Shown: piece after piece, positions 30,718 to 63,123 of the stretch
Layout of the letters: the number at the start of each line of letters is the position of its first letter
Position numbering within the stretch: the stretch's first letter is position 1
Origin: Haliotis cracherodii
Lineage: Eukaryota
DNA length: 64,000 bases
Assembly (NCBI RefSeq): GCF_022045235.1
Contig: NW_027266265.1
Location: 16,988,001-17,052,000 of the forward strand
Direction: 5' to 3'
The notes under the pieces: generated by a model
The model's input: the letters and a program-made list of their open reading frames with translations, nothing else
Told to the model about the DNA's origin: nothing
The model's database searches: none
Translations under genes and position numbers: made by a program

Positions 30718-30970
30718 GTGAGTGAGTGAGTTGGGTTTAACGCCGCTTTTAACAGTATTCCACTTATATCACGGCGTGTCAGCTTAATGTGGGAGGAAAG
30801 CCCGAAGTGATGCAGGTCTCAAACGTTTACCACTTCCGCGAAAACCACGAGCACGGGTATGGTGCTGACAAACCTAGAAACATAATCAGGGTGAACCGGG
30901 ATTCGAATCCACAATCATAGGTTTCTACCCATGGGACGCAACACTGCACAGCGAATTGCGTCTTAGACTA
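30718..30970 (-). mobile_element. SINE family B copy
   Basis: Reverse complement of most of 37220-37501. Confidence 0.8.
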
Positions 30971-31865: not shown

Positions 31866-31980
31866 CAGACTCACACAAACAATCACGCACACATATAAAC
31901 ACTCACACACACAATCATACGCACATATACACACTCACACACAAAAACACTTTCACACGCAATCACATACACAAACACAT

Positions 31981-32951
31981 ACACGTACACTCAACATTGT
32001 CAAGAGATACTGAAAAGAAATTAATACTTGTTCAGTGACGGGCGGTGTTTCTATGCCTTAGAAAACATCTACATAGTAGATGTTATTTAACAGTCCAACT
32101 GAAGCAAGAAGTGAATTGCTGCTGTGCAGTACTAACTGCCGTGTCATATCCGTATACATATAGGGAAACCTACTGACGGTGTTAACAGTTTTGAATCAAA
32201 TAACACAATTAATAGTATTTAACTTTATTAGATAAGGATTTTAACCACATATGGATAAAACGTTCATCTTCAAGTAAACATAGTATGATATTTGTTTTGA
32301 AAAATGCGCATTTTCTTATTTCCCTATATTTCTAACGTACAGCCACGTGCAAGTTATGCCCCCATGAAAAACACGAAGTCACACGGGGTAACAATGCAGC
32401 AACATCATAGATGAATGAATGTAATTATGTTTGCGTTAAGCAATACAGGATCGATTTTAAAATCGGGAATAATTAAATTTTGTATGATATAACGACGTGT
32501 GACTTTTAGTCCATTAGTCTCGGCTGAATTGTTTTATATTACAACTTCAAATATATCCTAAAATGACCCCTTATACACAACAGTACCCAGTGCCCAGCGC
32601 AAAGAATGTCATGCCTACAGAGATCCTTAAGTAAAGGTCATCTGTATTCTGCATCTCAAGTCACCATGCCCCAGTTCTTGGCGATGTGAGCTTTACATCA
32701 ACTTTGTTTCATTATTTATTATTTCCTTTCTTTACAAAGACATGTTGTCTTTTTTCGAACGCAGGATCTGCCCCGACAATGCTACAATCAATTCACTATG
32801 GACTGATGTTGGCATGCAATGCAATGCTTAACAATTTTATTTTTATACAGTTTAGAGTGCACGAGTGGCCCAGTCGTCAAAGGCGCTGCGATTCGTTGTG
32901 AAGAGTTGCGTCCCTTAGGCGTGCCAGAAACCTAAGATGATGGGTTCGAGT
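31981..32951 (+). repeat. Arm 1 of an inverted segmental duplication (partner 40625-41505)
   Basis: Reverse-complement match by eye; ORFs 32686-32901(+) and 40674-40889(-) are homologous. Confidence 0.9.
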
Positions 32952-33827: not shown

Positions 33828-34189
33828 TAGGTGCCACTGCCCAAGCAAGCATAGCACCAGGATGATCGCAAGGCGATGTTACGTTCATCTTAGCACTATG
33901 ATCCCTGTGTACAAGTGGACCATGTGGGAGAATGGGGTCTCATTATACAGTTTAAAGGTTGTGGAGCGGTCAGTATATTTATGTGATGTAACTGCCTTGA
34001 GCTGCTACAGACAAGCATGTTCTTATGGTGTCCGAGAGGGTACATCGTTTTATTCACTTTAATTTTGGTCGCGAGAAAACGATAAAGCGAAACGAGAAAG
34101 TGTCATATGCTCTAAAGACAATAAGCCTGAATCTGGCTTGCGCTCTTGTTTTCAATGCCAGGGGAATGGTGTGCTTTTGAATCACCCTC

Positions 34190-36158
34190 CCAGACAGTTT
34201 CTCCTAATTCACAACGTCAATGGATAGCAAAAGCTAGTCATCATTGTCCCGGATAGTGTATCCTAGTTCACTACGTCAATGGATTGTCAAGGCTAGTCAT
34301 CATTGTCCCGGACAGTGTATCCTAGTTCACTACGTCAATGGATAGTAATAGCTAGTCATCATTTTCCCGGATAGTGTATCCTAGTTCACTACGTCAATGG
34401 ATAGTCAAGGCTAGTCATCATTGTCCCGGATAGTGTATCCTAGTTCACTACGTCAATGGATAGTCAAGGCTAGTCATCATTGTCCCGTACAGTGTATCCT
34501 AGTTCACTACGTCAATGGATGGTAATAGCTAATCATCATTGTCCCAGGCAGTGTATCCTAGTTCACTACGTCAATGGATAGTAATAGCTAGTCATCATTT
34601 TCCCGGGCAGTGTATCCTAGTTCACTACGTCAATGGATAGTCAAGGCTAGTCATCATTGTCCCGGATAGTGTATCCTAGTTCACTACGTCAATGGATAGT
34701 CAAGGCTAGTCATCATTGTCCCGGACAGTGTATCCTAGTTCACTACGTCAAAGGATAGTAATAGCTAATCATCATTGTCCCGGACAGTGTACCCTAGTTT
34801 ACTACGTCAATGGATAGTCAAGGCTAGTCATCATTGTTCCGTTCAGTGTATCCTAGTTTACTACGTCAATGGATAGTCAAGGCTAGTCATCATTGTTCCG
34901 GATAGTGTATCCTAGTTTACTACGTCAATGGATAGTCAAGGCTAGTCATCATTGTCCCGAACAGTGTATCCTAGTTTGCTACGTCAATGGATAGTCAAGG
35001 CTAGTCATCATTGTCCCGGATAGTGTATCCTAGTTCACTACGTCAATGGATAGTAATAGCTAGTCATCATTGTCCCGGATAGTGTATCCTAGTTCACTAC
35101 GTCAATGGATAGTAATAGCTAGTCATCATTGTCCCGGATAGTGTATCCTAGTTCACTACGTCAATGGATAGTAATAGCTAGTCATCATTGTCCCGGATAG
35201 TGTATCCTAGTTCACTACGTCAATGGATAGTCAAGGCTAGTCATCATTGTCCCGGACAGTGTATCCTAGTTCACTGCGTCAATGGATAGTAATAGCTAGT
35301 CATCATTGTCCCGGACAGTGTATCCTAGTTCACTACGTCAATGGATAGTAATAGCTAGTCATCATTGTCCCGGATAGTGTATCCTAGTTCACTACGTCAA
35401 TGGATAGTAATAGCTAGTCATCATTGTCCCGGATAGTGTATCCTAGTTCACTACGTCAATGGATAGTAATAGCTAGTCATCATTGTCCCGGATAGTGTAT
35501 CCTAGTTCACTACGTCAATGGATAGTCAAGGCTAGTCATCATTGTCCCGGACAGTGTATCCTAGTTCACTACGTCAATGGATAGTAATAGCTAGTCATCA
35601 TTGTCCCGGACAGTGTATCCTAGTTCACTACGTCAATGGATTGTACTGGCTAGTCATCATTGTCCCGGATAGTGTATCCTAGTTCACTACGTCAATGGAT
35701 TGTAATAGCTTGTCATCATTGTCCCGTGCAGTGTTTCCTAGTTCACTACGTCAATGGATAGTCAAGGCTAGTCATCATTGTCCCGGACAGTGTATCCTAG
35801 TTCACTACGTCAATGGATAGTCAAGGCTAGTCATCATTGTCCCGGACAGTGTATCCTTGTTCACTACGTCAATGGATAGTAATAGCTAGTCATCATTGTC
35901 CCGGACAGTGTATCCTAGTTCACTACGTCAATGGATAGTAATAGCTAGTCATCATTTTCCCGGGCAGTGTATCCTAGTTCACTACGTCAATGGATTGTAA
36001 TAGCTTGTCATCATTGTCCCGGGCAGTGTATCCTAATTCACAACGTCAATGGATAGTAATAGCTAGTCATCATTGTCCCGGATAGTGTATCCTAGTTCAC
36101 AACGTCAATGGATAGTCAAGGCTAGTCATCATTGTCCCGGGCAGTGTATCCTAGTTCA
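34190..36158. repeat. 59-bp minisatellite, ~33 units
   Basis: Unit TAGTTCACTACGTCAATGGATAGT(CAAG/AATA)GCTAGTCATCATTGTCCCGGA(T/C)AGTGTATCC. Confidence 0.97.
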
Positions 36159-36364: not shown

Positions 36365-37702
36365 GTATGTGTTGTCCATATTGTATCACAACTTATAGAC
36401 TAAGCAACTATGTACTGGAATGAATGACATTTCATTTAGCGTTATGTCATGTTTGGCATTTACAGAATGACCTACGAACTACGTAGAATAACGGATTATC
36501 TGTCCCGAGAGAATTATTTTTGGAAGTTACAAACATTGGCGTAAATCAAAATCATGTTCATAATAACCAAGTTCTGTTGGTTCTCATCGAAACATGTTTT
36601 ATAAAGATACATACATTGTCTTTTACATAGGAACTGATTTCGCAAATATCAAATATTAATTGCTGAACATGCATATCCTTTAACCATTAAAATATGCCAT
36701 TTCACTGGCTTGGAAAATATTCACTATACGGTCAACATATTACAAAAGGGAAAATACTTATATCCAACAGACCAATGTAATGAGCTGAATAAATCCGTAA
36801 AATCTCGACGTATGCTAAATGAATATATGTGTCAGATGCCATGAAAGAGTTCTGTAGGTAGTTCCCAAGACTCAGCTTCAATCTTCGGAAGATAATACAG
36901 TTATCAAAATATTATTGTACGAGGGTTGATTGTTAAGTTTTAAGAATTAAATAAAAGTGAAATCGTTTGTCGAGGACATTACATAATGTCATTAATCTGA
37001 GGTGTATCCACACGAGCTTGAGTCAACTGGGCATATAGTTTCTCCGTGACAAGTCAGTAAAATAAATAAGTGCTCACGGTTTTGTAGCCTTTGGAAAATG
37101 GACAAACTTGAGGAACGTGCAAAGGTTTTCACTATTGCGAAATTCATTCTATTTGACGCTTAGAACTACCAACCATCCCTTGTACGTACAATTTTCCTTT
37201 AGAACTTCATTGAGCTTCAGGGGACACGGGTGGCCTAGTCGTCTAAGGCGCCGCGATTCGCTGTGCAGAGTTGCGTCCCTTGGGCACGCCAGAAACCTAT
37301 GATTGTGGGTTCGAATCCCGGTTCTCCCTGATTATATTTCTAGGTTTGTCAGCACCATACCCGTTCTCGTGGGTTTCACCAAAGCGGTAAACGTCTGAGA
37401 CCTGCATCACTTCGGGCTTTCCTCCCACATTAAGCTGACACGCCGTGATATGACTGGAACAATGTTAAAAGCGGCGTTAAACCCAACACACTCACTCACT
37501 CATTGAGCCTCAGGGGCATTGAACTCTATTCCTTAGAAAATTCTAAAATAGAAGTTGTTTGATCAAGGTTACAACATTCAAGGCCTCATAAGGCTTTCAA
37601 AGCGTTTGAACACACACTACTCCAGCTATATGACGGCGGTCTGTAAATAGTTTTGTTTTTGTTTGTTATTAATATACTGTCATGTTTATTTAATATTTTT
37701 AG
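36365..37702 (+). other. Probable 5'-UTR intron of TLR-C
   Basis: GAG|GTATGT donor (same as TLR-A) and TTTTTAG|ATAT acceptor. Confidence 0.5.
37220..37501 (+). mobile_element. SINE family B, full length, tRNA-Leu-like head
   Basis: TGGCCTAGTCGTCTAAGGCGC...GTGGGTTCGAATCCC, (CACT)n tail, TSD TCATTGAGC(T/C)TCAGGGG. Confidence 0.85.
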
Positions 37703-37752: not shown

Positions 37753-39393
37753 ATGTCGATCCATTCCTTCCATTTACTCTTCATTGTTTTAGTGACACAC
37801 TCAACCAGTGGATATCCGAACAGTAGTATCCCTTTGGAGTGGTCAAACATTTGTCAATCCGCCATTAACCTTTCAAACGTAGTCATTTCCTGTCACGTGG
37901 GTGTTGACGATACATGGGATTTAGATCACTTCCGGAACTGGTCAGCCCTATTGGATAATGACACTCTTGTGTCTCTGGACGTAATGTGTGAAACTGGAGC
38001 CAGTATCTGTCTCCCTTGGCCGTACCGAGCCAGACATCTGGACACTTTGAAGATCAGGAATTGCATCAACACTTACTCCTTCTTTGACTTCCACCGACGG
38101 GAAGTGCTGGATATCCCTGACTCCCTGAGGGTGTTTGAAGGATATGGTATGACGGAACAGTTTAACGTTATGAATGTTTGGGTGTGTGGACAGAAGTCCT
38201 TAGAGGTATTCATCTACAGGAACACCAAGGTAGATTTGAAAAACAAAATTTACCTATTCGCAGGTTCCTATAGAAATTTGAAGGTCATCGATATTAGTCA
38301 AGAACCAAAAACATCTATGGGCGCGCAAATTGACCGTCTTTCAATTTTTGTTTGGATGCCTCAACTTAGAAATTTGAATATGTCAGGCATAGGATTGCAG
38401 GTGTATCCATCGATGTTGAAACCGTGGAGAACCTCATTTCCCAAACTAGAAATTGTGGACCTCTCCCACAACAATATTTCCCATTTTGACATAGAGATAA
38501 CGTCTCCTTCCCAAGATGATGTTGGCCTTATAGATCTACGGTTTAACAATATACAGACCATAGGCGTCCATGAAATAATCTCCTTTTCACATTATAAAAG
38601 AGTTTTTATTGACATGAGAGGCAACCCATTTAGATGTGATTGTGCTATGGCAAACTTGAATGACTTTCTTCAGAAAAACACCAACAAAGACTTAAGTAAT
38701 ATGAACTATCTTTACGATTTGAAATGTGTTACCCCTCAAAGGTTTCGAGGAAAAGCGATCAGAGACCTTTCAAAAGAGTTGTTGTGTTCCACGGATACGA
38801 CTGCCTATGTCGCTCAGATATCAGTCCTGTGTGTTATCGTTATCATTTTGATAATCACTATTATTGTAACGACAAGATATAGGAAGGAGATAACCATTCT
38901 TGCTTTCACGCGTTTCAATATTCTTCTTCCATCTCAACCGATCGGAAAGTCAAGCAATAAGACATACGATGCTTTTGTGGCCTACAGTCACCATGACACC
39001 GAATGGGTTGTGAAAACCCTTCTCCCTCGACTAGAGAGTGGATCCCCTGACGGAAATAACTTCCGGTTATGTCTTCACCAGCGAGACTTTGCAGTTGGCG
39101 CCGCTATAGCTGACAACATTTGTCAGAGCGTTGAGGCAAGCAGACACACTATCCTGGTGTTGTCTCGGAAGTTTCTGGAGAGCGAGTGGTGTTTGATGGA
39201 GTTCCGCACTGCCTTCCACCAGAGTCTCATTGAGAAGAAGAAACATCTGATTCTGGTCCTCCTTGAGGACATCCCCGTGAGTGAACTTGACGCGGACTTT
39301 CGGCGTTGTATGCAGACAAGGACGTACATTCACATCTCTGACAAACTTTTTTGGGACAGAATCGTTTATTCATTAACCGACAAAAGTAATTAA
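37753..39393 (+). CDS. Toll-like receptor C (shortened ectodomain, no post-TIR tail)
   Basis: ATG at 37753 (MSIHSFHLLFIVLV signal), LRRs, GNPFRCDC, TM nearly identical to TLR-A, and a complete TIR ending SLTDKSN*. Confidence 0.93.
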   Translation: MSIHSFHLLFIVLVTHSTSGYPNSSIPLEWSNICQSAINLSNVVISCHVGVDDTWDLDHFRNWSALLDNDTLVSLDVMCETGASICLPWPYRARHLDTLKIRNCINTYSFFDFHRREVLDIPDSLRVFEGYGMTEQFNVMNVWVCGQKSLEVFIYRNTKVDLKNKIYLFAGSYRNLKVIDISQEPKTSMGAQIDRLSIFVWMPQLRNLNMSGIGLQVYPSMLKPWRTSFPKLEIVDLSHNNISHFDIEITSPSQDDVGLIDLRFNNIQTIGVHEIISFSHYKRVFIDMRGNPFRCDCAMANLNDFLQKNTNKDLSNMNYLYDLKCVTPQRFRGKAIRDLSKELLCSTDTTAYVAQISVLCVIVIILIITIIVTTRYRKEITILAFTRFNILLPSQPIGKSSNKTYDAFVAYSHHDTEWVVKTLLPRLESGSPDGNNFRLCLHQRDFAVGAAIADNICQSVEASRHTILVLSRKFLESEWCLMEFRTAFHQSLIEKKKHLILVLLEDIPVSELDADFRRCMQTRTYIHISDKLFWDRIVYSLTDKSN

Positions 39394-40624: not shown

Positions 40625-40626
<2 letters not shown>

Positions 40627-41502
40627 TCGAACCCATCATCTTAGGTTTCTGCACGCCTAAGGGACGCAACTCTTCACAACGAATCGTAGCGCCTTTGACG
40701 ACTGGGCCTCTCGTGCACTCTAAACTGTTTAAAAATAACATTGTTATGCATTGCATTGCATGCCAACATCAGTCCACGGTTAATTGATTGTAGCATTGTC
40801 GGGGCAGATCCTGCGTTCGGAAAAAGACAATATGTCTTTGTATAAAACGGAAATAATAAATAATGAAACAAAGTTAATGTAAAGCTCACAACGCCAAGAA
40901 CTGGGGCATGATGACTTGAGATGCAGAATACAGATGACCTTTACTTAAGGATCTCTGTAGGCATGACATTCTTTGCGCTGGGCACTGGGTACTGTCGTGA
41001 ACAATTCAGCCGAGACTCATGGACTAATAGTCACACGTCGTTATATCATACAAAATGTATTTATTCCCGATTTAAAATCGATCCTGTATTGCTTAACGCA
41101 AACATGTATTACATTCCGTCATCTATGATGTCGCTGCATTGTTACCCCGTGTGAGTTCATGTTTTTCATGGGGGCATAACTTGCACGTGGCTGTACGTTA
41201 GAAATATAGAGAAGTAAGAAAATGCGTGTGACTAAAATATGTGGTTAAAATCCTTATCTAATAAAGTTAAATACTATTAATTGTTATATTTGATTCAAAA
41301 CTGTTAACACCGTCAGTAGGTTTCCCTATATGTATACGGATATGACACGGCAGTTAGTATTGCACAGCAGCAATTCATTTCTTATTTCAGTTGGACTATT
41401 AGATAACGTCTACACGATGTTTTATAAGGCCTAGAAACACCGCCCGTCACTGAATAAGTATTAATTTCTTTTCAGTATCTCTTGACAATGTTGTGTTTAC
41501 GT

Positions 41503-41505
<3 letters not shown>
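40625..41505 (-). repeat. Arm 2 of the inverted segmental duplication
   Basis: Reverse complement of 31981-32951 with internal deletions; both ends abut (GA)n tracts. Confidence 0.9.
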
Positions 41506-41580: not shown

Positions 41581-42164
41581 CCTTGGTTCATTGCCATGCC
41601 TGGATATGTACAGTGCATCGTGTTCTTAGCTCACGTGGTGTCGGTAGATAAGCGATAACGATACGAAGAGTTAAAATAATTTGTATTGTGTTAACCATTT
41701 GGTGTAGGTAGATTAGCGCATTCCCGAACACTCTCGATTAACGCTGAAAGTGAAGCTGAAAACTGTTCAGACAAATGACGATAAGAAAAGTTAAAATAAA
41801 TTGAGCGAATAGGCAGATCATATTATATATCGGATTAAACGATTCGGATAGTTTCTTTTTTGATGGATGTGAATATCTAATGAACTAAGAAAATATCCGT
41901 GACTTGATAGGATCGATTTTAGAATTTAGATTTCCCAATTTGCTAAGAAAGAGAAGACCCCAATATTTGGGCCCCAACAGTATGTGAAAGCCATTTCAGG
42001 AGACGAAGTTAATTCAGAGAGAATTATAGCAACACATTCCTGCCACACCCCACACCCCTTCCCACACCCAACAAAACACCAATTAAATGTCACATAAAAT
42101 ATAAAACACAGAAAATGTACAGCTGTTTTTCATACCTGACATATCCTATAATAAGTCTGAACAA

Positions 42165-42404
42165 AACTGCCTGACAAAAGGAAGTATACACCATGCATAT
42201 GTTTGATGTTGGCTAAGATGAAATAAAAGAGAAATGGTTATTCGACGCCGATGCATTTGATAAGCTTAATGGTATCATTGTTGTGTTTTGGACCGTAGGT
42301 TTGCAGTAATTCGGAGACTGTCTTAGGCCTAGTAATGTTTCAAAACATTTGTCATTCTTTAAACAATCCATTTTCAAGTGTATACTTGCTTTTCCCCGGC
42401 AGTT
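42165..42404. mobile_element. Tc1-type MITE, same family as 15316-15543
   Basis: AACTGCCTGACAAAAGGAAGTATACA ... TGTATACTTGCTTTTCCCCGGCAGTT, with a similar interior. Confidence 0.7.
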
Positions 42405-42546
42405 TAAGTCTCAGGAGCTAACAGTGTGTGTTTTAACTGAATATTTCCTCTTGTTACAACAGTGAATATACAAGCTTACAAATAGTTTCAACTATTCCAG
42501 TGAATAGTAGATGTGTGCTTACACCTATAAGCATTGAACATATATT

Positions 42547-42703
42547 GGGCGCGTGGTTAAAGCATTGGCTCGTCATGCCGAAGACCCGGGTTTGATTTCT
42601 CCACATGGGTTCAATGTGTGAAGCCCATTTTCCGGTGTCCCCTGCGTTATATTGCTGGAATATTGCATTAAGCGGAGTAAAACCATACTAACTCACTCAC
42701 TCA
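42547..42703 (+). mobile_element. SINE family A copy just beyond the TLR-D stop codon
   Basis: GTGGTTAAAGC...GCCGAAGACCCGGGTT...ACTCACTCACTC. Confidence 0.8.
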
Positions 42704-42720
42704 AAATATATCGATATTTT

Positions 42721-44103
42721 CTAGAGTTTCTCCTGGGTAGATTTTGAGGATTCGTCTTTGTGTCGTCCATCATTGATGTTTTGTTCGTTGATGGGGGACC
42801 GGCCACACAGGATTCGGCAGCTTCGGGAGATGAGCAATTTAACGTTCTCTCTGTAAAGGATGCTTAATAAGAGTGAAGCGACCAAAATGACAACAACAAC
42901 AGCTAAAACAGCGACGAAGGCTTGGTAGGACGCCACATCCACGACATCAAGGTTGCAAAGCGCTTTCCTTGAGAATTGACTAATTTGTTTTCCTCTTTTA
43001 CTGACTGGATCAACGCACGTGAGATCCCAAAGATATTCGTAGTCAAGACTCAGACCTGCATCTTCTGGCGTCGGATGTCTTCTGAGAAAGTTACTGAAGT
43101 CGGCCATAGCGCAGTCGCATCTCAGGGGATTTTGTCTCACGTCCACAACTTGTGCAACGGAAGACTGAAACGATCCGATCTCGGCCTCTTTTATTGTTTG
43201 AATGGAGTTGTACGTTAAGTTGATAACTCTGATTGGTGCGTCAAAACTTTGAACACCCCCTCTGAGGTCAAAACGGGAGATGTTATTATGGGACAGATCC
43301 AAAATTTGTAGTTTTTCAATGCGTCCTTTCCATGATAATAAAATAGAAGGGAACGCCTGTATCTCCGTGGAAGAGTAGTTTAGTGTTGTCAGGTTGGGGA
43401 AGCGAGAGTTGATGAAAGTGGCGTATATACCTGCAGACGATGAGTCTTGTCTCTGACTCGCGTCATAGACCTTCATATTTCTATAGTTACACACGTGTTT
43501 AAGTTTGTTTATATCCCGCGCTGTTTGTACGAAATTGTTAGTAACCTCGTCTTCCCCTTTCGGCACAAAACTTTTGGGGTAAATTATGTCAGCCTTGGTG
43601 TTCCTGTAGATGAATACCTCTAAGGACATCGGTCCACACTCCAATGCAGGAGGGAGACTCTTCAGGTCGACAGACAACATATCCATAACGTTAAACTGTT
43701 CAGTCACACCATATCCTTCAAACACCCTCAGGGAGTCAGGGATATCCAGCACTTCCCGTCGGTGGAAGTTCGAGAAGAAGCACGTGTTGATGCAATTCCT
43801 GATCTTCAAAGTGTCCAGATGTCTGGCTCGGTACGGCCAGGGGAGACAGGCACTGGCTCCAGTTTCACACATAACATCCAGAGACACAAGGGTGTCATTA
43901 TCCAATAGGGCTGACCAGTTCCGGAAGTGATCTAAATCCCATGTATCGTCAACACCCACGTGACAGGAAATGACTACGTTTGAAAGGTTAATGGCGGATT
44001 GACAAATGTTTGACCACTCCAAAGGGATACTACTGTTCGGATATCCACTGGTTGTATGCGTCACTAAAACAATGAAGAGCAAATGGAAGGAATGGATCGA
44101 CAT
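42721..44103 (-). CDS. TIR-less TLR paralog D (LRR ectodomain, TM, ~44-aa tail)
   Basis: Intact 460-aa ORF from ATG 44103. N-terminus nearly identical to TLR-C, LQILDLSHNNI, QNPLRCDC LRR-CT, TM AFVAVLAVVVVILVASLLLSILY, no TIR. Acceptor TTTTCAG|ATAT at 44177. Confidence 0.88.
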   Translation of the reverse strand: MSIHSFHLLFIVLVTHTTSGYPNSSIPLEWSNICQSAINLSNVVISCHVGVDDTWDLDHFRNWSALLDNDTLVSLDVMCETGASACLPWPYRARHLDTLKIRNCINTCFFSNFHRREVLDIPDSLRVFEGYGVTEQFNVMDMLSVDLKSLPPALECGPMSLEVFIYRNTKADIIYPKSFVPKGEDEVTNNFVQTARDINKLKHVCNYRNMKVYDASQRQDSSSAGIYATFINSRFPNLTTLNYSSTEIQAFPSILLSWKGRIEKLQILDLSHNNISRFDLRGGVQSFDAPIRVINLTYNSIQTIKEAEIGSFQSSVAQVVDVRQNPLRCDCAMADFSNFLRRHPTPEDAGLSLDYEYLWDLTCVDPVSKRGKQISQFSRKALCNLDVVDVASYQAFVAVLAVVVVILVASLLLSILYRENVKLLISRSCRILCGRSPINEQNINDGRHKDESSKSTQEKL

Positions 44104-44904
44104 CGCTGACAATGTGTTCTTTCACGTTCCGATGGCTCCGATCTCACTGTTGCTTACACCTCTTTTGGGGAAATATCTGAAAATATAAGATAACCATGAA
44201 AGTTGTTGGAGTATATCAATGGCAGTCACAAAACATTATTTACAGTCTGTCGTCATATAGCTGGAATTTTCCTAGGTGCAAACAACTAAACCCACAGACA
44301 CACAAATAAAAGGCTAAGTGATTCAGTTAATTTAAACTAACACTTTCTCATTGAACTGAAATGCTAAGTATGAAAAATCAAACTCCTTGTTTTCAAAACA
44401 ACTACACGAAGTATGGAAGAAAAGTGATGATGTTTCCGTTATAAAATAATGGAATGATTTCCTTCATACAGCTTCCATATGTACATAAAGGTTATGACGC
44501 CAGTGTGTTTTGGGAAGGTAACTACCCATCCGTTCGCCCGCCAGAGAAATTGCCTTTTATCAAAGGGAAGCTACTCTAGTCTATGATATCTCACGTTTGT
44601 TTCGTCTGCTTGCCATTACATTATCATAACGTTACGAAATGCAGTCAGATGTCCCAAACTGCGACAAAAAGAAACGAAGGAATTTCGGATATATTTCGGC
44701 CAAATCCGACGTTATTTAATTCGGGAGGACGCCCCAAGGCGCAGTTTTCTATCAGCACGGATATGGAAAGTGATCCCGCTTGCGTCCCCGTTCAATGGCT
44801 TCCCCAATCATCCAATGTTGCCAATGCTTGTTAAAGGCCTAAGGTACGTCCCTGGTAGACATTGATTTTCGGCATCTTTGACTATTGTTCTAATGATGAT
44901 AATA

Positions 44905-45180
44905 GTGAGTGAGTTGGATTTAACGCGGCTTTTAACATTATTCCAGTTATATCGCGGCGTGTCAGCCTATTGTGGGAGGAAAGCCCGAAGTGATGCAGGT
45001 CTCAGACGTTTACCACTTCGGTGAAACCCACGAGAACGGGTATGGTGCTGACAAACCTAGAAACATAATCGGGTCGAACCGGGATTCGAACCCACAATCC
45101 TAGGTTTCTGGCATGCCCAATGGACGCAACTCTTCAAGCGAATCGCGGCGCCTTAGGCGGCTGGGCCACCCGTGCCCCCT
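44905..45180 (-). mobile_element. SINE family B, full length
   Basis: Reverse complement of 37220-37501; TSD CTAATGATGATAATA. Confidence 0.85.
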
Positions 45181-45276
45181 AATGATGATAATAACTATCC
45201 CAGTAACATGTCCAGATCCCCGAATATCAATTGTGACTCGATCGCCAATAGGCAAAGGAGACGCCATATCTGTTTG

Positions 45277-45441
45277 CACTGGCGGATCCAGAGGGGATGT
45301 ATGTGTGTGTGTGCGTGCGTGCGTGCGTGCGTGTCTGTGTTTGCGTGCGAGAGCGTGTGTGTCTGTGTGTACATATGTGTGTGCACAGAGGTGGGTATTA
45401 TGTGCACCTCCACTTTTTTCAAAATCCCGGATCCCCCGCTG
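45277..45441. mobile_element. hAT-like MITE containing (GT)n
   Basis: CACTGGCGGATCCAG ... CCCGGATCCCCCGCTG imperfect TIRs. Confidence 0.45.
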
Positions 45442-46329
45442 CTTTGTTCACACTGACAGAAGTTCCAACCTCACCTTTTACATTTACATATTTATCCGTG
45501 AAGACACTCACTGGGTACCGTTTTTATCCGTTGACTTTATCCTGCCGAGAAACCAACCCAAAATACCATAAATAATACATATTACCTATTAGCGACTGGT
45601 CCATTCACGGAAATTGCAATGGGACAAATAAATAACTTATATATTATACTTATACTTATTATACTTATATATATAAACACCTTATATATTGACATTACAC
45701 TCGTTAACCCATTCGTACACAATAAAACACGACACACAAATAGATGTTCTTCACACTGACCAACACGGATCTCCGGAATCCTGTATGATTTATAGGTTGC
45801 ATTTGGTCCGACGTATATTGATGGTATCCAGTCAGAAACGAGTTTAACGCCTACTTAAGGATGGGTATTATATCCTTGTCGTAGCCAATCATCTTATCTT
45901 ATTCGTTTCATAATACTGTTTTCGTTGTACTGTTCATTTCTTTGTCAAAAAATAAATATTTGAATTCAGACCTGGACTATATATCTGCTCTTGCATAAAA
46001 TCTAGTCTGGTGCCGTTCGAAAAATACACGTCGAACCTCTAAATCTAATGTTCCAGAATGTTAGTTTTTTTTAGTGTTTTTCAACACATGTGGTGTGTGA
46101 TCCAATACTTAAAGAACAATGGGGTTGTTTCGTCTTATTTCCTTATACAAAAAGGTCACCCCTGCTGACCCAGTGATTCAGAGACTAGAATGAAATGTTC
46201 AACACACTAGTGACGAGTCCTCAAAACACAATTAAGACACACGTTACTGTTATCATAGGACATGATTAATCAATAAAGATTAATAATATTTATAATGGTA
46301 TGTCAATACTTAATTTAACAAAATGTATA

Positions 46330-47090
46330 AACGGGGAACATATATAACCATCGAATTTGTATAATGAAGGAATGTTTATAATGAGGGTATGTATAACCAG
46401 AGAATATGTATAATCAAGAAATATGTATTACCAGAGAATATGTATAATCAAGAAATATGTATAACCGGGGAATATGTATAATCAAGAAATATGTATAACC
46501 GGGGAATATGTATAATCAAGAAATATGTGTAACCAGGGATATGTATAATCAAGAAATATGTATATCAAGGGAATATCTATAATCAAGGAATATGTATAAC
46601 CAGGGAATATGTTTAATCAAGGAATATGTATAACCAGGGAATATGTATAATCAAGGAATATGTATAACCAGGGAACATGTATGATTAAGGAATATGTATA
46701 ACCGAAGAAAATGTATAATCAAGAAATATGTATAACCAGGGAATATGTATAATCAAGGAACATGCATAACCAGGGAATATGTATAATCAAGGAATATGTA
46801 TAACCAGGGAATATGTATAATCAAGGAATATGTTTAATCAGGAAACATGTATAACCGGGGAATATGTATAATCAAGAAAAATGTGTAACCAGGGATATGT
46901 ATAATCAAGGAATATGTATAACCAGGGAATATGTATAATCAAGGAATATGTATAACCAGGGAATATGTATGATTAAGGAATATGTATAACCGAGGAATAT
47001 GTATAATCAAGAAAAATGTATAACCAGTGAATATGTATAATCAGGGAATATGTTTAATCAAGGAATATGCATAACCAGGGAATATATATA
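46330..47090. repeat. 17-bp tandem repeat with a 34-bp dimeric structure
   Basis: Alternating GAATATGTATAATCAAG / GAATATGTATAACCAGG. Confidence 0.92.
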
Positions 47091-47439
47091 ATTCCTGAAA
47101 TTTTCAGGGAATGTATTTAACGTCTGATTGAATGGGTGAACATCGAAGTACAACTGACTACATTTCAATGTCCGTTATACCTAAACTCATGACATAAAAT
47201 GGCAGTAAATAGAAACCGTCAGCTCCAGAGAATAACCCAGTCTCGGTTATGTGCCGATTGCACTGGGCGGAAAAGTTAAATCACGGCGTGTCAGCTTAAT
47301 TTAGGCCCATGATAGGTCTCAGATGTTTACCACTTTGGTGAAACCCACGAGCACGAGATAAACCTAGAAACATAATCGGGGCGAACTGGATTTCGGACCC
47401 ACTACCATATGTTTCTGCGCAGCCCTCTTATATTTCAAA

Positions 47440-47613
47440 GTGAGTGAGTGAGTGAGTGAGTATGGTTTTACGACGCTTTTATCAATATTCCAGCAATACC
47501 ACGGCGGGGGACACCAGAAATGGGCTTAACACATTGTACCCATGTCGGGAATCGAACCCGGGTCTTCGGCGTGACGAGCGAACGCTTTAACAACTTGGCT
47601 ACCCCGACCGCCC
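47440..47613 (-). mobile_element. SINE family A, full length
   Basis: Reverse complement of 21359-21530; TSD CTTATATTT(C/T)AAAG. A partial family B copy precedes it (47278-47420). Confidence 0.88.
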
Positions 47614-49380: not shown

Positions 49381-50162
49381 ACAAGTGTTTCAGTGTGGGG
49401 CAGGGCCGAAGCCCTAGCAACTCTCAGGAGTCAAGTTTTATGACCTGTTCGCTGTGTACGGGACCACGTGCCACCACGTTATGGCGATGTTAGATATATC
49501 GTTATGTAAATAAAACCATAAAAGAAGAAAATATTTTGCATAATTCTGCAAAGAGGAGGACAGTGTTTGGAAAGCGACAATCTCACCTACCGTTGGGCCC
49601 ATCGACTTCCTTGTAGTATTCCCCCAGCTGTATTCATACACATGATAAGTGTCAGTTTCCTGTAACGACTTCTGGTCCTCATACATTCAAGGACGGAAGG
49701 CTAGCATGTATCAGTCATTCAAACAACGTGCGACAAATGCGTATCGCCAGTCATCATGGGGGCTTCTATTTTTCATCCAATCAGAATGCTCGAGCTTGTT
49801 ATTGCGTTGTACATCTGCGATGTTTGTGAACAGTGTTCCAGCGCCCAGCGACTCCGTTTATTGCTCAATTCCAGCAAGCAAGTGTGTGTGTGTGTGTGAA
49901 TCACGTCGGCTTGACCACTCATATTCATCTGTTACAGCGACGGTGTGGTGATCCTGTGTGTCGGCTGTAAGATAGGGAAGCTGAATATGCCACAGGACGT
50001 GGTGAAACTGAACTGAACTTTTCTACACACTGTGAGGCTGCTATTAGCGGCGTTATAGAAGTACTGACTCATTTCAACAACAAACACATGTACGTGAAAA
50101 TGTAGAATAAATTCAAAACACAAACAAATAGATATATCATATATGTTGAGGCGTGTCACAGT

Positions 50163-50925
50163 CCCCCGTCATCGTGTCCTGAATGTTGTGCTTTGTCATG
50201 GTACCCCGTCACTGTGTCCTGAATGTTGTGCTTTGTCATGGTACCCCGTCACTGTGTCCTGAATGTTGTGTTGTGTCATGGTACCCCGTCACTGTGTCCT
50301 GAATGTTGTGGTGTGTCATGGTACCCCGTCACTGTGTCCTGAATATTGTGGTGTGTCATGGTACCCCGTCACTGTGTCCTGAATGTTGTGTTGTGTCATG
50401 GTACCCCGTCACTGTGTCCTGAATGTTGTGTTGTGTCATGGTACCCCGTCACTGTGTCCTGAATGTTGTGGTGTGTCATGGTACCCCGTCACTGTGTCCT
50501 GAATATTGTGGTGTGTCATGGTACCCCGTCACTGTGTCCTGAATGTTGTGGTGTGTCATGGTACCCCGTCACTGTGTTCTGAATGTTGTGTTGTGTCATG
50601 GTACCCCGTCACTGTGTCCTGAATGTTGTGATGTGTCATGGTACCCCGTCACTGTGTCCTGAATATTGTGTTGTGTCATGGTACCCCGTCACTGTGTCCT
50701 GAATGTTGTGATGTGTCATGGTACCCCGTCACTGTGTCCTGAATATTGTGGTGTGTCATGGTACCCCGTCACTGTGTCCTGAATATTGTGATGTGTCATG
50801 GTACCCCGTCACTGTGTCCTGAATATTGTGGTGTGTCATGGTACCCCGTCATCATGCCCTGAATGTTGTGGTGTGTCATGGTACCCCGTTATCGTGTCCA
50901 GAATGTTGTGCTGTGTCGTGGTACC
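50163..50925. repeat. 40-bp minisatellite, ~19 units
   Basis: GTACCCCGTCACTGTGTCCTGAATGTTGTGGTGTGTCATG. Confidence 0.97.
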
Positions 50926-52423
50926 TCTTTATCTCGTCCTTACTGTTGTCTCTCTCATCGACATCGCAACTACAACCAGGCAACGTCCAAAGTAAGACCA
51001 CATAAGCCTGTTGACAACAGGAATGGCGATCCAGCCTTCAACTATCATAACAAGAAGGCAGTATTTCAATAACTGGATTATCTCATTCAGACCTCATTAT
51101 TAACAGGCCCTCATCATATATATGGGATATTTCTAAATAAACAAACAAACTAACTAACAAATGGTATGTCATAAAATTGAGTGTACCATGGCCACGACAT
51201 TGTATTTTAAAGACGCTTCAGGCGAATTTAAAGTTGATATTTTGCAACGCTCGTCCTTATTTGTTTTGTTTGTTTGTTGTTTAACGCCGAACTCAGCAAT
51301 AGTCAAGCTATATGACGGCGGTCTGACATCATGGTCATCGATCTACGTAATTGGGATACGACACGACGCATCAACCAAATTAGTCCGTTCCCGTTAGTCG
51401 CTTCTGACGACAAGCATTTAGGAGTGGGTTGTTCTAGCTGAAGTACTGTCGGAAAGGCTAGAAGAATGCTTTTTGCCCGTTAAAACAAGATAGAATGTTT
51501 GACAAACTGTTGCTATTGGAATATCAAGTAACTACCGATGTACCTACGTGTGGTTTGAACAATTTCAGTCACAAGGAGTCCTATCGACAATTTTGCACAT
51601 TTCGAACGAAAAAAGCAACTTCACTTCACAAGTCCAATGAGGGAAGTCTGAAACGCAAATAGAAATACGCGCACGTGACCCCGTTAACATAATCATAATT
51701 ATCATAATCATAATAATGATTAATCATTCTGGATGTGCATCTTAGAAATAACAAAATCACGCTGCATGCGTTATTAACTTATCTACTTGTAGTAGAAGTC
51801 GGGAGGTAATTAATGTTCCCCAGACGACATTATATTTACCTCTCCTCTTTATGGGATTTCGATACACAATTCATGTGGCGCTGACCGAGCAGTTTTCAGG
51901 AGAAAATATTGCATCATGCCAATGAGGTCACATTATCTCCACGCAAGTCATGACGATCTTGCAGGTTCATAATAAAAACATGCTGTTTCAGCTCAGAAAA
52001 AAATGCCAATATAATGAGTGAGTGAGTTTGGTACACCACTTTGATCAATGTTTTAATTATATCACGGAATAGCAACTTGATGTGGGAAGAAAGTTCAAAG
52101 GGACGTTAAACCAAACTCACTCACTCACTCACTCACTCACTCACTCACTCACTCACTCACTCACTCACTCACTATTCAGAATATAAGCTGCAGAATAGTT
52201 TTGATGCAATCCAAAACGTATTGAAGAGCAAATAATGTTTAGTCTCACTGTCTATCAGTTTTATGACACTGCGTCTTTGCTTTGTAGAGTTACCTCCCTT
52301 AGTTGTCCGCTTAGGATCCGCATATAGAGAGTTATAATTTCATATTTGCCCTAACTGTGATCCTTTGACTCAGTATTATACACATCAAAGTGCAAACATC
52401 TACGGATTTAGTTCAACGTTAAA

Positions 52424-53110
52424 TTGACACGCCATGAAATAACGAAAATACTACCCAACAATAAAATTCAAGTCAGGAATGTCAAGGAGGACCTGGTTAC
52501 AAAGGAAATAACCATAAATCTCATTGAAAAGATGGATCTAGGAAAGAACATCAGTGACCAGTGTCATGAAAAGTTGTCTGAAGTTATTTTCAAACATTAC
52601 AACACTTTTAGCTCACGCGATGAAGGCATTGGATTTTGCGATGCAGTTCAGCACAAGATCGTAACCCTGGATGAAATCCCAGTCAAGGCCCCTCATAGAC
52701 GGATTCCACCCGAGCAATGGGAAGAAGTCCGGGAATATATCGGAAAAGCACTAGTTAATTGCATCATAAGGGAATCTTTAAGTCCTTATGCATCACCAGC
52801 GGTCCTGGTCCGCAAGAGTAATGGAAAGCTGAGGAATAGCTGTGACTACAGAGCTTTAAATGCGAAGACACGCAAAGATGCCTATCCTCTGCCCAGGATT
52901 GATGAAGCATTAGATGTTTTGACGGGTACTTTTGCATCCTGGACCCGGGGCGTGGTTTCAACTAGATTCCAGTTGCTGAGGGAGACATCGAAAAGACTTG
53001 CCTTCAGGATAGGTACTGGCGGACTTTATGAATATACCAGGATGCCCTTTGGTCTAACCGGTGCACAAGCAACATTCATGCGCCCCATGGACAAGATCTT
53101 CAGTATAAAT
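52424..53110 (+). mobile_element. Ty3/Gypsy pol (reverse transcriptase) fragment, degenerate
   Basis: IIRESLSPYASPAVLVRK, DYRALNAKTRKDAYPLPRIDEALD and YEYTRMPFGL. An internal frame disturbance is present and the fragment ends before YxDD. Confidence 0.9.
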
Positions 53111-53547
53111 AAAATACATGGACCCAGAGAACGACTTTGTCCAGCTTTTACACCTACAAAACATGTGTTAGTTTCGGATATTCAGAAGTAAACGACTGTG
53201 TTTGAATGAAGGTGCAACAGGGAAGCCCTTTCAAAAGGAGAGTTACCGCACTTTGGGACACAAATACCACCAATTAATGCCTTCAGTGAGATTGAAACAT
53301 TCTGACTATTTGTGGCTGAAACAAATTTTGTTTGAATGGCTGGAGTTATAATTGGCTGGACTGTCAGTTTGCTCGAGTTTAGTGCCCCTTTAAGCGCTCG
53401 TTTTCCGCTACCAAACAAACCAGGCCAAATCAATGATGCCTTCATTACGTTAACGGGTCATTGCAGCTCGCGCAGTTCCGTGGCTATGACTTGATACCGA
53501 GTCGACATACTTATCATCTGTTTGAGTCGGCCTACATTGTGTACAGC

Positions 53548-54392: not shown

Positions 54393-54541
54393 GAGGCGGT
54401 CGGGTAGCCTAGTGGTTAAAACATTGGCTCATCACGCCGAAGATCCGGGTTCTATTCCCGACATGGGTACAATGTGTGAAGCCAATTTTTGGTGTCCCCC
54501 GCTGTGTTATTGCTGCAATATTGCAATATCACTCACTCACT
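54393..54541 (+). mobile_element. SINE family A copy
   Basis: GGCGGTCGGGTAGCCTAGTGGTTAAA...ACTCACTCAC. Confidence 0.8.
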
Positions 54542-54782: not shown

Positions 54783-55045
54783 GGGTGGCACGGGTGGCGC
54801 CGCATTTCACTGTGCAGAGTTACGTCCCTTGGGAACGCCAAGAACCTTTGGTTGTGGGCTCGAATTCCGGTTCGCCCCAAAGATGTTTCTAGGTTTGTCA
54901 GTACCATACCCGTTCTCGTGGGTTTAACCAAACTGATGAACGTCAGAGACCTGCATCATTTCTTGAGTGCCTCCCAAATTAAACTGACACCAGTGATACA
55001 ACTGGAATACTGTTAACGGCGTTAAACCAAACTCACTCACTCACT
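54783..55045 (+). mobile_element. SINE family B copy
   Basis: GGCACGGGTGGCGCC...GGCGTTAAACCAAACTCACTCACTC. Confidence 0.78.
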
Positions 55046-55367
55046 CGTTCTAACAGTGTTAGCAGCATTACCCTATTCTCCTCCACGAAGACATACAGTT
55101 TTAAGTTGCCTCAGTTATGACTCAATGTGTTCCCGAAAAGGGTAAGCATATATTATTCTATCGGTAGCACCCGCCACTGGTAAGCGTTTGTTTGTTTCCA
55201 CCGCAAGAACACCTTGCATGTTTCTACCTACCTTGTCCAATATATATTGAGACATCTGTCAGGTCGTATTGAAATTAAAATAAAAACTTGGAGTGGATTT
55301 ATGTTGGATTAAGATTTTGAAGTTTGGATTGGGAGGTTAAAACATTTGCTTTCCGATTGTATTTCAG

Positions 55368-58954: not shown

Positions 58955-59702
58955 TACAGTCGCCTCATCCCTCATGCCTACAGCGCGTAAGTTACATGTG
59001 TTCTTTAATTCAATAATCACAGGTTTGTGGAGATTGTATACAAAACAAGCATGGACCAATTATCTGGAATTGAAACTTGCAACAAGAAGGATTTCGCAAC
59101 ACCCACGAGTGAGTCAGAATTTAGGGTCACATATGAACTATTGCAGCAATTTCCTTGTTCAAAGAAGTCACGTCGGCATCATTTCGAATTCAAAGAAAAT
59201 GTGACCAATAAATGTATTATAGTTGTGTTAGATAAAAACTGTGGTCAAAGGAAACAAAATAACGTGTAACATATCACATATTTGTATTTAAATGTAGTAT
59301 GAAAACATTAAAACAACAAACTATTTTACCACGATACAATACAAACCTTCCTTTCAAAATAGAGATTTATGACAATGATGAGTATGAATCTGAGGCCGTT
59401 TAGAAACGACAAGAAGCTCTATTTGTTTGCAAGGATTATTGTTTTTAGAGATCCTATCAAAACATTACTGACTTCCCCGTACCCTGACATCAAGTGATGA
59501 ACTATTGTATACATTATTGTTATGAGGGAAGGGATGTTTGTCACTCTTCTGGCATGTTTTTTCGACCTCGAATCTAACTTCAAACTACTGGCACATGGGC
59601 AGGCACAAAGCACTTCAACTGGTAGTCGTGTCAGTACCTTCATTGCCCGTGACATAAACAGTGTACAATATCAAGACACGACTGTATTTCAGTTTGCAAG
59701 GC
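58955..59702 (+). repeat. 748-bp direct repeat, left copy (flanks the LINE)
   Basis: No mismatch seen against 63124-63871; ORF pairs are identical at offset 4169. Confidence 0.95.
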
Positions 59703-62700
59703 TAACCAGCGAGGATGTAGAGGGGAAGGCGGTGTGGCAATTTTAGTTAAGAAAAATATGTACAGGTACACTGATATATGTGAATGTGAGTATGATAGTG
59801 TTGTAGCTGTGAGACTCTCCCGTCCCCAGTGTGCTGATATGTATGTAGTGTGTGCTCTGCTCCCCTCCACTAATCACAACACAGCAGTGTATGAGGAGAG
59901 TGTCAAGGAAGTGTTCGACGTGGTTGATGAGCTATCAGAAAGCAGTTATGTTGTTCTTTGTGGAGATTTTAATACAGATCTTGTAAATTACCCAGCATCC
60001 CCTCGCTCCACTGTACTGCAGTCATACTTGGATACAAGAAACATGATACCATCATACAACTGTGGTGTCACTCTAGGTCGTCTCAAGACATGGTGCAACA
60101 AGGCTGGAACACAGTCATCTCTGATTGATTATATTTTCTTGCCAGATGCTCTTCAATCATCTGTGCTGACGACCTCTGTCAATAACAACATCGATTTCGA
60201 GATATCGGATCATTCACCAGTAGTGGTATCATTCCTTAGCGATGCGTTCTTAACAGAGCAAAAGCTATGGACTCCCCCAACTTACAAATGGCAGAAGGCG
60301 AATGGCCTTGAACTGAAGATGTACTCATCTGAAGTTAACAAAATACTTGGGGACACCCTTCCAGACGTGACACATGCTGACAGCGATATGGTGGAATATT
60401 ACTTTGATGCTATAGTGAGCTCTCTCCACACGTCAACAGCAATGTACATCCCAACAGGATCATACAGACCATACCTTCGGCCCTATTGGAGAGGATCTAG
60501 TCTAGACTACTACCACTACCAGATGCGTCATGCTAGACGACAATGGATATCTCAAGGTAAACCTAGAGGAGATGCACATGGCTCTTATAAACAGTATAAA
60601 GCAGCTAAATGCAACTTCCGTCGACAGAAAAGAAAAGCCGAACGGCAATGGGACAGACACAAGTATACAGAGCTGAACTCTGCCTGTGAAGTGGACATTG
60701 GTGAATTTTATAGAACTGTCAGGAGACAGAGGAAGACTAATGTAACGTGTACATCTCTACAGTATAAAGACAAGACGGCCAGCACACCCGAAGACATCTG
60801 CAATATGTGGACTGATTACTACGGAGATCTGCTGTCTCCTCTCGATAGGCCTGAGTTTGAAACGGACTTTTATGAGGAAACAAAATCAAAGGTTTGTGAT
60901 ATAGCAAACAGTAACATATCTGAGAACGATCCAATCCTGGCGACAAGTATTGCATCTAATGAAGTGAAATCAACCATTAAGAGGCTGAAAAAGAATAAGT
61001 CTCCTGGACCAGACTGTATTACTGTAGAACACCTCTGTAATGCTGACAATCTTCTGTTTAAACATCTGGCACACCTCTACAATATGATGATCAGTACTTG
61101 TTACACGCCTGTCATGATGAGAACTGGAACTATTATTCCCATCTACAAAGGGAATAATAAAGATAAATGCAACCCAGCTAATTATCGCGGTATCACTCTA
61201 ACATCTGTGATTGGGAAGGTATTTGAGAGGCTGTTGCTAGACAGACTGGAGTCCTACATCAAATCTATTAATCCTGATTTCCCACATCGTCTCCAATGCG
61301 GCTTCCGGAAAGAGCATGGCGCCAGTGTTGCTACATTTGTGTTAAAAGAGGCTATTTCTTATTATCAAGATAGACACTCAAATATATATGTTGCCTTTCT
61401 GGATAACGAAAAGGCCTTCAACAGGATATGGCATGAGGGGCTGCTACTGAAACTATACAATCTTGGTGTGAAAGGCCGTGCATGGCACATTATCCGTCAA
61501 TCTTACCAAGAAGCAAGTGCTTGTGTTAAATACAATGGGAGCACAGGTGATTTGTTCAATGTTCAACAAGGAGTAGGACAAGGTCGCGTGCTCTCAGCAT
61601 GGATGTTTCTAGTCTATATCAATGACCTGATATCCCAGCTTGATAATCTACAATGTGGACTAATTGTTGGTAAGGAGCACATCCCAACGGTAGTACTGGC
61701 TGATGACACTACTGTTGTGAGTACGAGTGTACATGGACTGAATATGTCTCTTGATACTATCCACCAGTATGCTCGGCGCTGGAGACTGACATATAACGCC
61801 AATAAGAGCTGTGTCTTGTCTTTTTGCAATAACAGAAGACATTGTAATAGACCTGTGTTCAGAATTGGAGATGTGACAATGAAGATCCAAAGCAGTACGA
61901 TTTATGCCGGCTCTCTGATACACACGGAAAAAGCAAGTGAACGAACTGCTAAGGCGCGACAGACAATCAACTCCTTAAGAAATGTTGGTCTTAGAGCTGG
62001 AGGATTGAGCCCAGTATCTTCATCGAATATCTGGCAACGAGTGATCTTCCCCACTGCCTTCTATACATGTGAGCTCTGGCCTAATATCAACAACCGTGAG
62101 ATCAGTGAGATGGAAACCCTACAGCGCTACTTTGCACGACGAGTCCAAAACCTTCACAGGAGATCCTCTACAGCTGCTACAACCCAGGTTCTAGGATTGT
62201 GGTCAATGCTGGGCAAGGTGGAGAAAATGAAGCTTCTCTTTCTGGGAAGACTCTGTAGAGCAGCAGGCACAACCATTGTGAAGCCGATTTTCTATCTCAG
62301 ACTATCCCAGTATGTCACCACGATCTCACACAGTGCCAGATCCATAACACATGATCTACTGAATGTGGCTCAAAAGTATGGATTCTCAGGCGTCTTAGAT
62401 AAACTAATCAACTCTGGGGAATTTCCATCTAAGAGTGTATGGAAGAGCATGGTACAACGAGCTATTAGTGAGTCTGAAAATATGAATTGGAGAAATACTT
62501 TGCAACAACGTCCAGACATGCATAGGTTTAGTGCTATCCACACCCGCCTTGCCCCACATCGTCTCTGGTCTCTGTGTATATGGTATGATATTACTCCCCC
62601 CCCCTGTATATGCTCTTGTAAAGCTCGGCATATTACCTGTAACGTCTGGACTATGTCTTATCTGTAACAGTGAATGTGATGACATTGTTAAGCACCAATT

Positions 62701-63123
62701 GCTTTACTGTGATGGCCTAATGAAACAGAGAAATGTGCTTAGTGAGTCTCTATTTGACAATGTTAGCCTTGAAACATATCTCAGACTTGAGGACACGTCT
62801 AGTGATGCCGTCAAGATTCTGACATACCTCGGTGCTATTACAGATGTGGTCCAGGACATGACACTTGACAGCTGGGCAACATTCATGAGTATCGTGGCTA
62901 AACATGTCAGCTCATGGAACTTAACATCCATATTGTATTTGTGAAGCTATGTCACACATCATGTAAATAGAGTTTCACGCATCACTTCATTACTGCTTAC
63001 CCAGCTCAACCTGTTGTATTCACATGTATTTTGTCATTGCCGTTGTCAAATAATGTAATGTAATTGTATGTACTACTCTCCAAATCATTGGGGGAAATAA
63101 AGAGTATTCATTCATTCATTCAT
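59703..63123 (+). mobile_element. Young 5'-truncated non-LTR retrotransposon (APE endonuclease + RT; RTE/RTEX-like, clade uncertain)
   Basis: ORF 59734-62667 has GGVAILV, GDFN, IDYI, SDH, KSPGPD, NYRGITL, QCGFR, GVGQG and LADD. A frameshift near the C9 run (~62596-62604) continues into CLIC...H...C (to 62944). AATAAA and an (ATTC)n tail end the element. Confidence 0.95.

Follow-up and report, generated by a model that had tools for sequence, protein, structure and literature searches.

A TIR-less Toll-like receptor paralog of Haliotis cracherodii evolves in concert with a TIR-bearing neighbour over part of its ectodomain

To our knowledge, mollusc Toll-like receptor (TLR) repertoires are very large, and almost no ligands or brakes are known for them. 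Molluscan TLRs with short ectodomains and a single cysteine cluster are described, in the available text of the published classification, as the X group, formerly the Ls type (Saco et al. 2023, PMC10279657). The vertebrate protein RP105/CD180 is described as working through TIR-bearing partners and can also stimulate, according to the accessible part of one account (PMC10353253), and CEACAM decoys and receptors are described as being kept alike by gene conversion (PMC2832619). We analysed a stretch of 64,000 nucleotides from the abalone Haliotis cracherodii (contig NW_027266265.1, positions 16,988,001 to 17,052,000; hereafter the window), which carried four related single-coding-exon genes. 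Three of them, A (677 aa, 8382-10415), B (644 aa, 22879-24813) and C (546 aa, 37753-39393), lie on the forward strand and are TIR-bearing TLRs by Pfam (E 1e-17 or better). The fourth, D (460 aa, 42721-44103), lies on the reverse strand, is 47-60% identical to its TIR-bearing neighbours and encodes a TIR-less LRR protein with a transmembrane (TM) helix. A motif, PEQYDLC, follows the TIR in A and B, both in the window and in H. asinina (P0002, P0003, P0009, P0015), and is absent in C and D.

The original prediction had taken D for an intact TIR-less TLR paralog, and its frame proved to be unbroken over the whole coding sequence; the alignment shows a TGA in the same frame 24 nt before the ATG. 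The parts it had listed, namely a signal peptide, eight N-terminal cysteines, LRRs with an LRR-CT, and a distinct TM segment with a tail of about 44 aa, could all be located, the signal peptide as a signal-like sequence. Reading along the reverse strand, codons 1-52 (43948-44103) encode a signal-like peptide and N-cap, with a hydrophobic stretch starting at residue 6 by hydropathy; codons 57-187 (43543-43935) encode the first LRR turns, whose strands were taken from the structure model; codons 207-385 (42949-43485) encode the C-terminal LRRs and the LRR-CT; codons 386-416 (42856-42948) encode the TM helix; and the last 44 residues (Y417-L460, 42724-42855) form a cytoplasmic tail. Eight cysteines precede the LRR-CT (C34, C47, C79, C86, C104, C108, C156 and C205), all of which except C86 and C108 are at least 90% conserved among 95 family members, and four more belong to the LRR-CT (C329, C331, C363 and C383). 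Pfam LRR matches were weak and below the curated cut-off (best E 2.3e-4). An AlphaFold2 model built on an alignment of 95 rows (mean pLDDT 88) showed a solenoid of repeated strands followed by a helix at 386-416; a second, short helix spans 418-432, and the end of the tail is of low confidence. Together with LRR fold matches and the LRR-CT cysteines, the model describes an LRR ectodomain with cysteine caps, about 365 aa long and with a degenerate solenoid. A single TM helix was found, placed by hydropathy at 395-413. In a fold search of 48,161 chains the model matched LRR proteins, best of all 5T4 (Z 17.2, rmsd 3.8, 246 aligned residues, 16% identity), with TLR4, TLR7 and Toll scoring close below. 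Foldseek returned general LRR matches only (best TM-score by query 0.41 among the matches listed), and a feature-cluster search returned generic LRR clusters, the best structural match being a 378-aa, mostly molluscan cluster.

The cytoplasmic tail is conserved at 24 of 42 residues; its length and end point are equal in the window, H. rufescens and H. asinina, and all three retain two cysteines. No tyrosine occurs in it after Y417, so that it contains no ITAM- or ITIM-like motif as these are commonly defined, and the hydrophobic core of the TM segment (395-413) contains no charged residue. A possible acidic dileucine motif near the membrane, which the window shares with H. rufescens but not with H. 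asinina, was given no weight.

As predicted, no TIR remnant was found past the stop codon. Across the window, tblastn and six-frame TIR profiles matched only A, B and C, all on the forward strand; the tblastn search of the C-to-D interval that had been proposed as a check gave no match, and a TM-TIR DNA profile gave nothing better than E 4 there (with C as control, E 9e-218). D and its orthologs lack a cytoplasmic TIR, and D is strictly speaking a TLR-derived paralog rather than a TLR. The orthologs in H. rufescens (XP_046349338.2, 458 aa, 95% identical) and H. asinina (XP_067651285.1, 481 aa, 73% identical) stop at the same TIR-less position, and H. rubra has a partial 325-aa model that ends ahead of the TM segment. 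Haliotis is described as having two main lineages, the North Pacific abalones and a group with H. rubra and H. asinina (PMC12627906), and the shared end in H. rufescens and H. asinina places the loss before their split; as a rough scale only, the H. iris-H. rufescens split has been put at about 40 Ma (bioRxiv 10.64898/2026.01.03.697505). The position of D, nested among A and B and with a TIR-bearing limpet (Patella) protein as sister, shows that its loss of the TIR is derived. Residues 207-385 are kept between orthologs to a similar extent in D (139/179 aa, with H. asinina), A (145/178) and B (146/178; Fisher p 0.30), and D is thus constrained to the same degree as its signalling neighbours.

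Evidence on transcription came from sequencing runs, of which 20 of 24 contained the stretch; none was recorded as RNA and 14 of the 20 were guessed to be RNA. Contigs of four runs (X1, X4, X5 and X9), from which rare forms are lost and neither strand nor level can be read, were aligned to 41600-47200. Single contigs in X1, X5 and X9 spanned the TM segment, tail and stop unspliced and ran more than 100 nt beyond, the outcome against a splice to a distant TIR that the original prediction had asked to see; among the pieces listed for X4, none crossed the D stop. Contigs covered the likely 3' UTR (41600-42720, reverse strand) down to the edge of the examined stretch. The match in X1 was free of differences over 1010 nt. 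A D-type contig in both X1 and X4 (one difference and no gap over 300 nt) departed from the window at 44177-44178, leaving 129 letters unaligned in X1 and 100 in X4. Because the departure falls exactly at a reverse-strand pyrimidine run followed by CAG (44177-44203), which resembles the splice-acceptor end of a 5' UTR intron, we read D as having a spliced 5' UTR. A 312-nt contig covering 43596-43907 in both X1 and X4 had higher depth and broke beside positions at which D and A differ, the pattern that collapsed A and D transcripts would give. The interval 45714-47022 had no contig cover in any of the four runs, which carries no evidential weight. Judged by these contigs, D is apparently transcribed.

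These results bear on the reading of D as a decaying duplicate, as a mis-assembly, or as the first exon of a TLR whose TIR is spliced on from far away. The runs are only guessed to be RNA, their contigs drop rare forms, and the search for a TIR exon was window-wide, all of which would leave room for it; against it stand a frame and stop position shared with annotated proteins of two other species, contigs bridging the TM segment, tail and stop in three of four runs, and the lack of a reverse-strand TIR in the 42 kb downstream of D. In X9, moreover, a contig differed less over 1007 mostly coding nt (19 differences, no gap) than over 626 nt of UTR (24 differences and 30 gap letters; p 0.025), a contrast that was absent in X5 (p 1.0). 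Among the coding changes listed, 22 were classed (11 synonymous, 11 not), and no rate was drawn from them. We consider this reading very improbable, and largely refuted already.

Residues ~57-187 of D evolve in concert with A in three lineages, whereas the remainder groups by gene. Over residues 53-168, D and A of the same species shared 105, 106 and 105 of 116 aa (91%) in three species, compared with 92-103 between D proteins and 93-97 between A proteins of different species (orthologs 79-89%). Outside the block the order was reversed: D-A paralogs were 31-35% identical and orthologs 63-77% in residues 1-52, and 52-59% and 76-91%, respectively, in residues 207-323, and over half of the D ectodomain diverges from A (59% and 45% identity). 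Sites shared by species fell inside 57-187 in 13 of 14, 14 of 15 and 8 of 9 cases in three quartets, which have species in common and are therefore not independent tests; D of H. rubra entered as a partial 325-aa model. Their clustering was significant in each quartet by site-order permutation (p <=1e-5), with no boundaries assumed and with two crossed sites and sites past residue 440 excluded. AU tests on eight proteins, with block limits picked after the sites were seen, rejected grouping by gene within the block (p 4e-7) and grouping by species in the remainder (p 5e-4). Between D and A, dS was 0.13 in residues 57-168 and 1.92 in 207-385 (dN 0.42 there), and was saturated in 1-52, 169-206 and the TM segment. 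The core of the block is 57-168, and the end at 169-187 matches mainly in H. rubra. B orthologs grouped by gene within the block (bootstrap 100), and the match is therefore specific to A as partner.

At the nucleotide level D and A were 85-100% identical over codons 61-160, and D was 32-80% identical to A and to C past codon 200, in agreement with the predicted combination of recent blocks common to A and C with strong divergence of the LRR-TM part without a break in frame. The further proposal that the N-terminus of D is kept matched to its signalling partners needed to be narrowed: the segment ~57-187 does track A, but residues 1-52 are D-specific across species, with 16 of 52 residues identical to A in the window. 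The two proteins also differ in their signalling ends, A having a TIR and D none, with 12 of 30 TM residues identical. A segment of ectodomain more alike within species than between orthologs, joined to different signalling ends, corresponds to the pattern of mammalian paired receptors; the ITAM or ITIM motifs or charged TM residue associated with such receptors, as far as the accessible text describes them (PMC2832619), were not seen in D.

Conversion in the cluster extends beyond D and A. The TIR regions of A (9813-10244), B (24271-24702) and C (38959-39390) share 414-418 of 432 nt (A-B 414/432) while the ectodomains of the three genes are near synonymous saturation, which makes the TIRs a second zone of concerted evolution. 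Gene C was 90-100% identical to D in nucleotides over codons 1-140 (dS 0.09-0.12), a match that includes the intron end and gives 51 of 52 identical residues at the N-terminus; its TM segment (dS 0.08 to A) and TIR are of A type; and its middle is divergent and its own, the cysteine equivalent to C205 of D having been lost through two deletions. C ends directly after the TIR. It is thus probably a three-part chimera with a D-type 5' end, its own middle and an A-type TM segment and TIR. The predicted likeness of D to C is real, but C most likely took the 5' end of D: in three other species the corresponding N-terminus belongs to D orthologs, and a search of 187 candidates yielded no ortholog of C, although this is weak as proof of absence. 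At 43741-43908, D of the window has five letters in common with C where the contigs mostly carry the letter of A, perhaps a sign of recent, possibly polymorphic exchange between D and C, although removal of bubbles in contig assembly could instead explain them for X1 and X4.

The window is also rich in repeats. C is flanked by a pair of inverted repeats (31980-32951 and 40625-41505; 973 columns, 86% identical). A SINE-like dispersed repeat at 42553-42703 starts 18 nt past the D stop, inside the likely 3' UTR, and has further copies at 21379-21529, 47445-47594, 13690-13817 and 54395-54523; a second dispersed family occurs at 44904-45180, 37219-37496, 30721-30960 and 54796-55049, and both of these short families are very abundant in RNA-like contigs. 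Long tandem arrays at 2683-6488, 10850-12103, 17978-19601, 34188-36158 and 50143-50949 hold open but repetitive frames; match offsets put the unit at about 28, 59 and 80 bp for three of the five. Within 58955-63871 lies a 969-aa reverse transcriptase reading frame (59758-62667, Pfam RVT_1), the N-terminus of which carries what we take to be endonuclease-like motifs. It is flanked by 748-bp direct repeats that are 100% identical (58955-59702 and 63124-63871), the second following a short CATT repeat; they may be a tandem copy, a very long duplication or an effect of assembly. A short, broken reverse transcriptase fragment with a weak RVT_1 match is found at 52532-53191 on the forward strand.

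A profile search found 128 related proteins at E 1e-30 or better, and we aligned 95, of which the first searches supplied 11 and the other 84 were picked, for near-full ectodomain cover, out of 150 matches listed. By hydropathy and TIR profile, 54 of these have a TIR, 12 have a TM segment but no TIR (three of them D proteins) and 29 have no TM segment. In the ectodomain tree a single clade (support 1.0), nested with A and B, holds all four D proteins, while the nine other TM-only proteins, some of which may be cut models, are scattered, several adjoining TIR-bearing proteins; one cluster spans three Mytilus species and another comes from scallop. Relatives in Patella and Mercenaria are named as TLRs. 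TIR loss is thus recurrent in this family, which makes D alone less surprising. Most of the TM-less relatives fall in one clade (support 0.96), and many stop just past the last LRR-CT cysteine. This clade of 350-440-aa, apparently secreted proteins ending after the LRR-CT includes P0070, P0093, P0095, P0101, P0104, P0108, P0116, P0118, P0121, P0122, P0124 and P0125, and those with names are from bivalves and unannotated; they are candidate soluble TLR-ectodomain proteins.

With some reserve, we favour the possibility that D is a membrane-bound decoy or dominant-negative partner of A that damps the signal of A. Gene conversion would repeatedly match the first LRR turns of D to those of A; through the shared block, as a putative ligand surface, D would bind what A binds; the two would meet on the same cells; and D would inhibit A either by competing for ligand or by a pairing that leaves one TIR unpaired. 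Having no TIR, D cannot itself recruit MyD88-type adaptors, and with neither a tyrosine motif in the tail nor a charged residue in the TM segment, a route through an activating adaptor is not apparent. Several points count against a decoy: the block may lie outside the ligand-binding site, conversion is common in the cluster, most of the ectodomain diverges from A, CD180 as the model case can also stimulate, the closest solved fold (5T4) is not a TLR, and the conserved tail would fit a job of its own.

Such a job, independent of a TIR, might be capture or uptake of microbes, adhesion, or that of a shed soluble sensor, with the block as the outcome of conversion between neighbours that nothing stopped. 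We regard this as possible, if doubtful. The D-specific N-cap, C-terminal LRRs, TM segment and tail are all conserved by gene, and TM-only (12/95) and TM-less (29/95) relatives exist, with one TM-only cluster kept in three Mytilus species. The block may be a by-product, since conversion is common in the cluster, as the near-identical TIRs of A, B and C and the mosaic C attest, or selection may keep the other half different; theory, in the part of the source available, permits selected parts to diverge strongly under conversion while the rest diverges little (PMC3924837). A by-product would, however, have had to match D with A but leave out B in each of three lineages, although the synonymous sites that flank the block are near saturation, and the tail contains no tyrosine-based motif.

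Anatomy and conservation fit a positive co-receptor, which would capture ligand or pair with A (or with B or C) and aid signalling or delivery to the membrane, as well as they fit a decoy; we nevertheless think this rather unlikely. TLR signalling requires TIR pairing, of which a D-A pair would supply one TIR only, and a co-receptor would not need to copy the surface of its partner. In its favour, CD180 is reported to associate with TLR4 and TLR2 and to require partners to signal (PMC10353253), and TLR1 and TLR6, heterodimer partners of TLR2, are also described as homogenised by conversion (PMC2077338).

Taking the decoy reading further, D and A may be an invertebrate paired-receptor system in which selection, through recurrent conversion since before the split of the two lineages, has kept the ligand-binding turns synchronised, and molluscs may repeatedly have spun off membrane-bound and secreted decoys; we put this forward as speculation that is more likely wrong than right. 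If it were true, the conversion tract would show where the members of an orphan receptor family contact their ligand, and the paired-receptor strategy would extend from mammalian Ig receptors to invertebrate TLRs. D and A form a natural pair with a shared segment defined by sequence, which predicts a ligand site in a farmed and conservation-relevant genus, and the pair lends itself to a simple two-plasmid test of negative regulation. Should the block be a by-product, it would still be a clean case of region-limited concerted evolution, of a kind that misleads ortholog calls in TLR clusters. TIR-based surveys would miss TIR-less members such as D. In the part of the literature covered we found no report of gene D or of a conversion pair of TIR-less and TIR-bearing invertebrate TLRs; Zou et al. 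2023, who surveyed the TLRs of Haliotis (cited in PMC12521104), could bear on this. The available text on a link to the IL-17 receptor (PMC11087794) held nothing bearing on D.

With its short ectodomain and few canonical LRRs (matches below the cut-off), the D family agrees with the molluscan X/Ls group as that group is described. Like those TLRs it has a TM segment, and A, B and C have a TIR; D has none, and the published phylogeny, in the text available, rests on TIR domains (PMC10279657). The original prediction had drawn a parallel to RP105/CD180, which holds for the LRR ectodomain, the TM segment, the short tail, the lack of a TIR and the origin in the TLR family (PMC10353253). It does not hold for the ectodomain itself, which is a degenerate solenoid of about 365 aa in D and about 600 aa in CD180 PDB chains, or for the tail (44 aa, compared with about 11 described for CD180; PMC10353253). 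Orthology to vertebrate CD180 or TLR4 was not borne out, with D nesting among Haliotis A and B (support 1.0, in a tree without CD180) and the family profile matching CD180 over the C-terminal LRR part only, as it does many LRR proteins. D originated within the Haliotis cluster, where it exchanges sequence with its partner, and no MD-1-like partner of it is known; the likeness would be architectural only, an analogy of independent origin. 5T4/trophoblast glycoprotein and other LRR-TM proteins share the fold, LRRs, TM segment and short tail, but many LRR proteins lie within 3 Z units, and given the identity of D to its TIR-bearing neighbours this likeness is one of general fold only.

Closer in pattern are CEACAM1/CEACAM3, Siglec-5/14 and Siglec-11/16, described as neighbouring paralogs with one ectodomain segment matched within species and with differing TM and cytoplasmic parts (PMC2832619). 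D and A differ from these pairs in being invertebrate proteins with LRR in place of Ig domains, in the presence or absence of a TIR instead of ITIM and ITAM, in the lack of a charged TM residue in D for a DAP12-type adaptor, and in that their common ligand is putative. Vertebrate TLR1 and TLR6 both retain the TIR, whereas one of the two abalone partners has lost it, and the part shared by D and A lies in the N-terminal half of the ectodomain. As tandem TLR paralogs with region-limited conversion (described in PMC2077338 and PMC3125219), TLR1 and TLR6 nonetheless resemble the abalone cluster, in particular the homogenised TIRs of A, B and C.
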